64,000 nt of DNA from an uncultured Puniceicoccaceae bacterium (GTDB lineage: Bacteria > Verrucomicrobiota > Verrucomicrobiia > Opitutales > Oceanipulchritudinaceae), in assembly GCA_963933835.1 (NCBI GenBank), contig CAWVVV010000004.1, forward strand, positions 152,782 through 216,781. Reading direction: 5' to 3'. The first letter of the stretch is position 1, and each line of letters opens with the position of its first letter. Both the position numbers and the translations under genes were made by a program. Below the pieces are notes generated by a model, which searched no databases, had not been told where the DNA came from, and was given only the letters and a program-made list of their open reading frames with translations. Shown here one piece after another: positions 11,594 through 12,044 of the stretch.

Positions 11594-11668
11594 TGCTCAG
11601 TAGCTCAGCGGTAGAGCAGGAGACTGTTAATCTCTTGGTCGCTGGTTCGATCCCAGCCTGAGCAGCCA
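11594..11668 (+). tRNA. tRNA-Asn(GTT)
   Basis: TGCTCAG acceptor, AGCTCAGCGGTAGAGC D-arm, CTGTTAA loop, GGTTCGATCC, encoded CCA. Confidence 0.95.
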
Positions 11669-11674
11669 ATTTTT

Positions 11675-11700
11675 AAGCCCCTCTTCTGGGGCTTTTTTTG
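11675..11700 (+). terminator. Intrinsic terminator after tRNA-Asn
   Basis: AAGCCCC-tcttct-GGGGCTT followed by a T tract. Confidence 0.8.
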
Positions 11701-11954
11701 CCTGTATTCGCTGTCTACATCCTTGAGAACCCTCAGGATCGTTTCTACATCAGTCAAACACGGGATTTGCAGGCTAGACTGAATAGCCACAACGACAGCG
11801 GCCCAAGGAGGGGTAAATATACCCGTAAGAATAGCCATGGAAGCTTGTCTGGTCTGAGGAGCATGCAAGTCGGTCCTCGGCTATGCGACGTAAGAGAGCA
11901 ACAAAGGACTAAAAGTCTTCCAAGCGTATTTGCAGCGAATTGCTCGCTCAGTAG
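11698..11954 (+). pseudogene. Small GIY-YIG nuclease, frameshifted and with a nonsense codon
   Basis: AVYILENPQDRFYISQTRDLQARLNSHN..KYTRK; shift near 11830 to PWKLVWSEEHASRSSAMRR; TAA at 11910-11912; frame ends at TAG 11952-11954. Confidence 0.85.
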
Positions 11955-12044
11955 CTCAGCGGTAGAGTCCCGCCCTGCGGGATTAATCTCTTGGTCTGCC
12001 GAAGGTCCCGATTCATCGGGAGTCGATCCCAGCCTGAGCAGCCA
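11946..12044 (+). repeat. Degenerate second copy of tRNA-Asn carrying two substituted hairpins
   Basis: Blocks identical to 11595-11668 (GCTCAGTAGCTCAGCGGTAGAG, TTAATCTCTTGGTC, TCGATCCCAGCCTGAGCAGCCA) separated by TCCCGC-cct-GCGGGA and a segment containing TCCCGAT-tc-ATCGGGA. Confidence 0.9.

Follow-up and report, generated by a model that had tools for sequence, protein, structure and literature searches.

At tRNA genes that serve as att sites for integrases, the tRNA is restored and partly duplicated. Among GIY-YIG nucleases, an association with hairpins has been described for the Ssn family (cd10448) and its NTS/SRM hairpin repeats (Chenal et al. 2025, PMC11893778). According to the main text of that work, SsnA needs Y6, Y17, and E64, binds the NTS hairpin on just one of the two strands, cuts single-stranded DNA (ssDNA) upstream of it, and ignores both double-stranded DNA (dsDNA) and RNA. 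Counted from the 20-nt product and the NTS75 oligo reported there, the cut lies 10 nt 5' of TCCCG. Hairpins on both sides, in inverted orientation, accompany 42% of Ssn genes, and tRNA is never mentioned in the main text. GIY-YIG insertions have also been reported in CPR rRNA genes, in a paper whose accessible text makes no mention of tRNA (PMC11270868), and the accessible text of a preprint (10.64898/2026.09.22.753630) makes no mention of GIY-YIG.

The locus considered here lies in a 64,000-nucleotide stretch of DNA (the window) from an uncultured Puniceicoccaceae bacterium, in whose 1.94-Mb genome (G000) the tRNA-Asn(GTT) at 11594-11668 is the sole tRNA-Asn called. An earlier note, made from the letters alone, had described this tRNA as followed by a GIY-YIG gene and by a second, hairpin-bearing tRNA copy, and that layout was reproduced base for base. 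The features are as follows.

11594..11668, + strand: intact tRNA-Asn(GTT) (ARAGORN; Rfam, 69.4 bits)
11675..11700, + strand: terminator-like hairpin (11675-11694) and T run, separating the tRNA from the nuclease gene (pattern match alone)
11698..11954, + strand: broken single-domain GIY-YIG gene (PF01541; alignment to intact relatives)
11946..11967, + strand: 5' arm of the copy, equal to tRNA positions 2-24 (sequence comparison)
11968..11982, no strand assigned: hairpin 1, in place of tRNA positions 25-34; its bottom strand is the predicted binding site of the nuclease
11983..11996, + strand: 14-nt arm equal to the tRNA from position 35; putative nick site inside it, about 10 nt from hairpin 1
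11997..12022, no strand assigned: second block, made up of a 9-nt leader, hairpin 2 (12006-12021), and a G
12023..12046, + strand: 3' end of the copy, equal to the tRNA over the T-loop, the acceptor 3' strand, CCA, and 2 further nt

Within the copy (11946-12044), three blocks of 22 nt (11946-11967), 14 nt (11983-11996), and 22 nt (12023-12044) are identical to the tRNA. Hairpin 1 (11968-11982), with a 6-bp stem, stands where the tRNA has CAGGAGACTG (positions 25-34), and the six bases GCTGGT of the T-stem 5' side are swapped for the 26-nt block 11997-12022, in which hairpin 2 has a 7-bp stem. This second replacement is present as the earlier note had it, but the 9-nt leader of hairpin 2 is probably not foreign and stems from a tRNA; it resembles the T-stem 5' side of other tRNA-Asn alleles. 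The second block is found at the identical position in L042, L044, L049, and L153, where its leader reads like the GGTCG(C/T)AGG of such alleles. Such hairpins number 5 to 8 in the 1.94-Mb genome, depending on the loop allowed, and yet two of them lie only 38 nt apart here; consequently, those of the copy are not due to chance. The reading frame of the nuclease gene had also been said to end inside the copy. The frame from TTG 11698 in fact runs on to 12105, and it is the post-frameshift frame, which encodes the true C-terminus, that ends within the copy, at TAG 11952-11954.

An assembly artefact is ruled out, as far as tested, by one contig of sequencing run X2 that covers 11400-12300 with one substitution, although X2, which belongs to another study than the run marked as the possible source, may still be the source of this DNA. 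Metagenome contig L352, which equals the window locus over the compared part, may also be the source of the same DNA. Run X11 gave one 253-nt contig (11642-11894) and none over the copy, and contigs can show neither transcription nor its absence. Over the copy, ARAGORN made no call and Rfam gave no match to E=10, so that no known RNA family in Rfam accommodates it. A dispersed repeat family of the hairpin was not found in G000, where the other hairpins lack flanking tRNA sequence and one or more of them resemble a terminator. The claim that no integrase is nearby holds: the two PF00589 matches of the genome sit on other contigs (C1 and C5). An integrative element with att duplication was rejected on this ground. 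The genome also contains a ComEC-type gene; such genes are common, and no weight was given to it.

The nuclease gene of the window scores 23.7 bits against PF01541 (cut-off 22.6) and is about 60% identical (48/80) to its nearest intact relatives. Its lesions comprise G13D, G18S (in the YIG motif), a frameshift near 11832-11834, E65K, and a stop at 11910-11912. Four of 22 invariant columns are altered (G13, G18, G45 at the frameshift, and E65, the predicted metal ligand), and W71 has become the stop. With five lesions that include catalytic-motif changes, a frameshift, and a stop, the nuclease copy is decayed, as had been noted, and the gene is dead as judged from its sequence. A G-to-A strand bias hinted at by these lesions is absent between tandem copies (C/T 27, A/G 22, unpolarised). 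The 58 tRNA-derived bases of the copy, on the other hand, are unchanged while the gene bears five lesions, a result whose chance is 0.05-0.002 at an assumed 5-10% decay. Furthermore, at least 20 exact 5' tRNA bases are kept in one of 75 downstream copies, namely that of the window. Comparison with intact genes ending in ...LLSGRVP (ORF end of L066/L206) suggests that it has gained an in-frame insertion of 12 nt copied from the tRNA 5' end. Its 15-nt hairpin type and 14-nt arm, in turn, resemble the upstream units of the window's own family. The copy looks like a mosaic that was rewritten from the local tRNA after the death of the gene; selection on the copy could also account for its intactness. 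The closest intact allele of the copy was not found in a metagenome pattern scan, in which L352 was the sole match among 16 loci.

Two further small GIY-YIG genes of this genome may be mentioned. Outside the window, a second decayed gene of the fMet-linked type lies behind tRNA-Met(CAT) (G000:C4:12200-12566, - strand), with no hairpin copy left; a near-identical paralogue of this segment (G000:C1:42770-43060, + strand) has no tRNA at its locus and opens with the tRNA's final few bases together with the terminator. Inside the window, an intact 80-aa gene of another branch (16806-17048, - strand; PF01541, 57 bits), which we take to be UPF0213-like, has no adjoining tRNA or hairpin.

The arrangement recurs well beyond the window. 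With ten intact relatives (alignment A2) as the query, 147 loci were found, and the best 80 of the 147, mostly from Verrucomicrobiota but also from Planctomycetota and Acidobacteriota, were kept. The cassette consists, in order, of tRNA-Asn, a GIY-YIG gene for a protein of ~85-90 aa, and a tRNA duplicate in which a TCCCG..CGGGA hairpin replaces positions 25-34. Among the best 80 of 147, a tRNA-Asn ends no more than 150 nt upstream of the gene in 63 of the 72 loci with a flank of at least 200 nt, a hairpin with a stem of at least 5 pairs stands at the gene end in 61 of 76 (versus 5 of 313 control windows), and more than one GIY-YIG match is present at 24 of 80. Some loci have tandem arrays of nuclease and copy units. 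The association of tRNA, GIY-YIG gene, and hairpin copy that the earlier note had drawn from one locus thus generalises to three phyla, and its minimal tRNA-linked nuclease unit is borne out by the recurring layout of nuclease, nearby tRNA, and hairpin copy.

A protein search returned 1,305 clusters at E<=1e-20, with generic names among those shown, and PF01541 is present in all 120 homologues among the matches listed. Phage and plasmid matches are all <45% identical, and no cassette loci were found in viral contigs, either by protein or by hairpin pattern. Within the window's own family, 37 genomes, several of them incomplete, yielded a hairpin copy in 12 cases and an intact nuclease in 4. 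All four with the intact nuclease also carry the hairpin, and in seven the hairpin copy is present and no nuclease was found; in a genome of the same genus (G002), no nuclease lies behind the tRNA-Asn 3' end. The distribution of the cassette is patchy within the family. No account of it was found in the literature, subscription journals being largely outside the search. The cassette is real, widespread, and not found described in print, and the window locus is a dead copy of it.

Intact homologues are single-domain proteins of 84-96 aa, and Y6, Y16, R26, H30, and E65 are invariant in 10 of them. The median dN/dS is 0.15, and 30 of 30 nearest-neighbour pairs fall below 0.5 (pairs restricted to pS 0.05-0.7 and not independent), values that point to purifying selection on the intact genes. 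The nearest sequence family is of the UPF0213/Slx1 type (E 1.9e-10), nothing in NCBIfam rose above a cut-off for the nuclease, and its label may be cd10449 (SLX1-like). UPF0213 is also rank 1 in Foldseek, and the nearest solved folds are UPF0213, HIGLE, and Slx1. The predicted model and its fold are consistent with the GIY-YIG superfamily, and the model of the ~85-90 aa protein has no room for a separate DNA-binding domain. In a quick tree (161 rows, 90 columns), the nuclease clades track tRNA isotype, with fMet-linked proteins forming their own clade (support 99) and a second Asn-linked group doing likewise (96). In the same quick tree, tandem copies cluster by genome and Acidobacteriota proteins nest among those of Verrucomicrobiota; mis-binned contigs could mimic transfer between lineages.

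The hairpin stems covary, to judge from 82 distinct main-site hairpins. Stem position 6 is paired in 78, with four pair types (shuffles: mean 42, maximum 52), and position 7 in 67 (mean 36, maximum 47), with one G-T pair at each position; the count ignores kinship, and the outer five pairs are fixed by the search pattern. Likewise, the outer TCCCG/CGGGA is nearly invariant while the inner pairs swap, in a set that the search patterns selected on the outer part, and other clades carry variants of their own, TCCG..CGGA and GCCCCG..CGGGGC. Thirty-seven genes read into the hairpin, of which 35 stop at a TAA right behind it, in three frame-and-length classes in which reading frame and hairpin length are coupled; 32 other genes stop before the hairpin. 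Recognition of the hairpin by the nuclease, as suggested in the earlier note, is plausible.

At least 86 of 180 hairpin rows, from three phyla, share the junction 24-to-35, an undercount because about 12 main-site hairpins were assigned to the neighbouring tRNA. Other junctions are 38-47 (Asn 5, fMet 12), 28-35 (12), 26-44 (Pro 8), 56-69 (6), 11-19 (fMet 2), and rarer ones, at least ten besides the main. The hairpin always replaces sequence and is never a clean insertion: where both arms could be mapped, all but one of the junctions replace 5-17 nt without target duplication, and the exception loses 42 nt. Because it is common to so many rows across three phyla, the main junction looks inherited, whereas the existence of at least ten others indicates that new placements occur. 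The idea that the nuclease installs hairpins is thus borne out in part. The positions are not conserved across tRNA isotypes; they are fixed per nuclease clade, and the clade-specific grouping and junction pattern indicate that hairpin sites follow the clade rather than a cross-isotype rule.

Several individual loci deserve separate mention. Loops differ among the tandem copies of L083, L100, L160, and L197, suggesting loop hypermutability. In L160, L161, and L165, tandem runs of tRNA-Pro copies have a hairpin for the whole anticodon arm (26 to 44), and in L194 (G301, 421-1455), tRNA-Arg(CCT) is followed by three tandem nuclease and copy units with the GCCCCG..CGGGGC hairpin. Related small GIY-YIG genes lie beside tRNA-Ser (with other hairpin types), tmRNA, and tRNA-Gln (L057, L058, L059), and fMet- and Asn-linked cassettes adjoin where the tRNA genes are neighbours (L069, L075, L076, L078, L083, L085, L095, L100). 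In G622, the hairpin core occurs in a dispersed repeat of ~150 bp, unrelated to tRNA, on at least 7 contigs (L175, L176, L178-L180, L182, L183), and L184 (G622) and L188 (G565), from two genomes of one genus, have a common non-tRNA segment with the hairpin.

The copies are found in two settings. Downstream units have the order tRNA, gene, short 5' arm, hairpin, and long 3' arm, typically with one hairpin. Their 5' arms measure up to 22 nt, mostly 10-17, and most of these copies are without the 5' acceptor strand, which the coding end of the protein overwrites; 47 of 80 keep at least 38 bases from position 35. Upstream units mostly consist of a leader, a full 5' arm, the hairpin, a short 3' arm, a spacer, and the intact tRNA, with no gene inside, and no hairpin lies upstream other than within a tRNA copy, where it has direct orientation. 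Among the 60 upstream copies that lack the nuclease, 55 end 6-18 nt past the hairpin (median 11.5; 38/43 loci by hand count), compared with 17 of 80 downstream units, in a count that left out L005, L006, L352, and the NTS loci and in which related loci are not independent. The hairpin is the constant element, flanked on either side by tRNA-matching tracts of variable extent. The short 3' arms could result from selection against T-arm-bearing upstream copies in the precursor. Over copy positions 35-52, the tRNA of the own locus is the best match in 65 of 122 units, with a tie in 23 and a better match in another genome in 34; copies track the local tRNA allele. A GTTCTTT motif, which we assume to resemble the antitermination boxA, is frequent in the spacers of upstream units (L027, L032, L035, L197, L203, L347). 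L026 is a relic with a terminator and a tRNA 5' fragment, from which the nuclease gene has apparently been deleted; the downstream gene is as in the intact L027.

It is postulated, with somewhat better than even confidence and by analogy with Ssn/NTS, that the cassette is a selfish element working by an ssDNA nick ~10 nt from the hairpin and that repair on the neighbouring tRNA amplifies, refreshes, and spreads it. An intact nuclease, presumably expressed from the tRNA transcript, would bind its hairpin in ssDNA, as SsnA does, and would nick the bottom strand near tRNA positions 44-46, ~10 nt right of the hairpin, a break that would expose tRNA-homologous DNA. Through its 3' arm, the broken end could then invade the intact tRNA gene, generating downstream (nuclease + copy)n arrays and also converting the copy to the host allele, while upstream nuclease-less copies would result from crossing over in the 5' arm together with repair of the free end. 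Recombination at the conserved tRNA gene might carry the cassette from lineage to lineage. The break points next to the hairpin fit this proposal, as an SsnA-like cut ~10 nt to its right falls where the upstream copies end. It also draws on the recurrent layout, the purifying selection on intact genes, the covarying stems, the tandem arrays, the copies that track the local tRNA, the patchy distribution, and the nesting of Acidobacteriota proteins among those of Verrucomicrobiota. Against it stand the mismatch to the SRM motif, the separate clade, a fold nearer to UPF0213/Slx1, the 34 of 122 units matched better by the tRNA of another genome, the single hairpin end whereas Ssn genes have two, and the finding of no viral carriers in the viral contigs searched. 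Furthermore, the origin of the 5-17 nt hairpin replacement at a new site falls outside the proposed mechanism.

Other hypotheses can be put forward to explain the cassette. It might home in the manner of SegB, the nuclease cutting the dsDNA of tRNA-Asn around the anticodon arm, the hairpin merely destroying the site in the copy, and repair spreading the whole. The GIY-YIG enzyme SegB of T4 has a motif of the tRNA T-loop as its recognition target (PMC2330249) and causes tRNA genes to undergo segmental amplification (PMC13096335), and the tracking of tRNA isotype by the nuclease clades and the consistent replacement of sequence by the hairpin would agree with such a process. However, at most loci an intact tRNA stands beside the nuclease, near-identical to that of nuclease-free loci (L044 versus L007), and the putative target would consequently not be removed in carriers. 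Since the small proteins are also without room for a separate DNA-binding domain, and since invariant hairpin ends with covarying inner pairs exceed what site destruction needs, SegB-like homing is considered unlikely. Another candidate is an Slx1-like activity, in which the enzyme would nick any branched DNA, such as hairpin bases or a displaced tRNA-strand cloverleaf, and the hairpin would be a substrate of the element's own making that is not read for its sequence. This agrees with the nearest solved folds and with the replacement of a whole arm by some hairpins (Pro 26 to 44; Asn 49 to 65), but the near-invariance of the outer TCCCG/CGGGA amid swapping inner pairs, even in a set selected on the outer part, and the distinct hairpin variants of other clades make it rather improbable.

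The copy could instead act as RNA, either as a tRNA-scaffolded partner of the nuclease or as a 3' structure lending stability to the nuclease mRNA upon its release from the tRNA precursor. The acceptor stem is preserved in its predicted fold (-38.8 kcal/mol, z -2.4), it has not decayed alongside the gene, more than half of the downstream copies retain the long tract from position 35, and the TAA behind the hairpin ends nearly all genes that extend into it. Nevertheless, the near full-length copy is unusual to the window locus (1/75), the T arm and acceptor stem are interrupted at differing points by second and third hairpins, there are hardly any G-T pairs, and SsnA, according to the main text of PMC11893778, is without RNA binding. 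The scaffolded RNA partner of the earlier note thus fares poorly, and a role at the RNA level is given only a slight chance. Finally, the assembly might be passive, an unrelated mobile palindrome having entered tandem duplications at a tRNA gene with the nuclease as a passenger that has a host function. The dispersed repeat of G622 and the seven family genomes with a hairpin copy and no nuclease found would suit this account. It is nonetheless held to be the least probable, since the hairpin stands at the gene end far more often than in control windows, three phyla share the fixed junction, hairpin length goes with reading frame, and G000 has no dispersed family of the hairpin.

A broader reading builds on the proposed ssDNA nick and is offered tentatively, at somewhat less than even confidence. 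The cassettes may represent a second, hitherto undescribed family of hairpin-guided ssDNA nickases and the smallest autonomous bacterial mobile elements (~330 bp), with the hairpin grafted per clade into one tRNA gene. In this model, the tRNA loops would supply the flanks, the nick would fall inside tRNA homology, and host recombination alone would spread the element across phyla, with amplification and transmission proceeding without an integrase or transposase. If so, a function would be available for many "putative endonucleases" (1,305 clusters at E<=1e-20 in this nuclease clade alone), and site-specific ssDNA cleavage would extend beyond the Ssn family, with the substrate of each enzyme lying beside its gene. 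How a non-rejoining nuclease spreads with its hairpin, a point raised for Ssn, would become directly testable, as the strand, the position, and the repair template can be read from the tRNA homology arms and the clustering of break points. In addition, an explanation would be at hand for the arrays of tRNA pseudogenes and the breaks in contigs that many of these assemblies show at tRNA-Asn.

Of the known systems, SegB of the T4/T6 tRNA clusters resembles the cassette in being a free-standing GIY-YIG gene beside tRNA genes that spreads and amplifies tRNA-containing segments, as the cassette is proposed to do (PMC2330249, PMC13096335). SegB, however, is a phage dsDNA cutter with a 27-bp site, whereas the cassette is chromosomal and absent from the viral contigs searched, and the SegB abstracts mention no hairpin-patched tRNA duplicate. 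In size and carrier, the cassette is unlike SegB: the protein is small, 0 loci were found in viral contigs, and phage records have <45% identity. The stand-alone prokaryotic Slx1-like/UPF0213 proteins (PMC1564403; PDB 1zg2, 1ywl) are the closest to the nuclease in sequence and fold and share its minimal domain, but the accessible text of PMC1564403 reports no tRNA-gene or hairpin association for them. Unlike integrase att sites, the cassette has both tRNA ends duplicated around the hairpin, with arm lengths that vary widely. REP/RAYT and IS200/IS605, as treated in the main text of PMC11893778, likewise combine an ssDNA hairpin with an adjacent enzyme gene and leave orphan hairpins that persist. 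They use HUH transposases able to rejoin strands, whereas the GIY-YIG enzyme of the cassette only cuts; consequently, host recombination would have to do the joining.

The closest comparison is with Ssn itself, for which six NTS-associated proteins from viral contigs served as proxies for SsnA. Several features set the cassette apart. The six NTS-flanked proteins lie on their own branch (support 97, length 1.23, quick tree), their C-terminal W.R.WK..L motif is found in 6 of 6 proxies and in 0 of 82 cassette proteins, and the SRM motif occurs in 0 of 120 units at 0-1 mismatch and in 2 of 120 at 2 mismatches. With these proxies standing for SsnA, the separate branch and the two motif counts rule out membership in Ssn; 9 of 82 cassette proteins pass the BLAST-type threshold of the paper (E<1e-10, 75% cover). 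Moreover, the cassette has one hairpin end only, its flanks come from tRNA sequence, and it is bound to a single tRNA gene and forms tandem arrays. Like Ssn, the cassette nuclease is a single-domain GIY-YIG protein of ~90 aa (<150 aa) beside a hairpin; it is 31% identical to an NTS-flanked protein over 84 columns and has the catalytic Tyr/Tyr/Glu spacing of SsnA. The hairpin has the TCCCG..CGGGA core of NTS and the orientation of a downstream NTS, the NTS directly downstream of Ssn-like genes being inverted in 4 of 4 cases, with none found downstream of two proxies. The tRNA flanks match the NTS flanks at 6-7 of 12 positions in the inverted (bottom-strand) orientation and at 2 of 12 in the other, a modest match (empirical 0.02-0.09 over all possible junctions) that is weaker at other junctions. 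Finally, the break points of the cassette lie where SsnA would cut. By this analogy, the cassette is likely Ssn-like in action without being Ssn.
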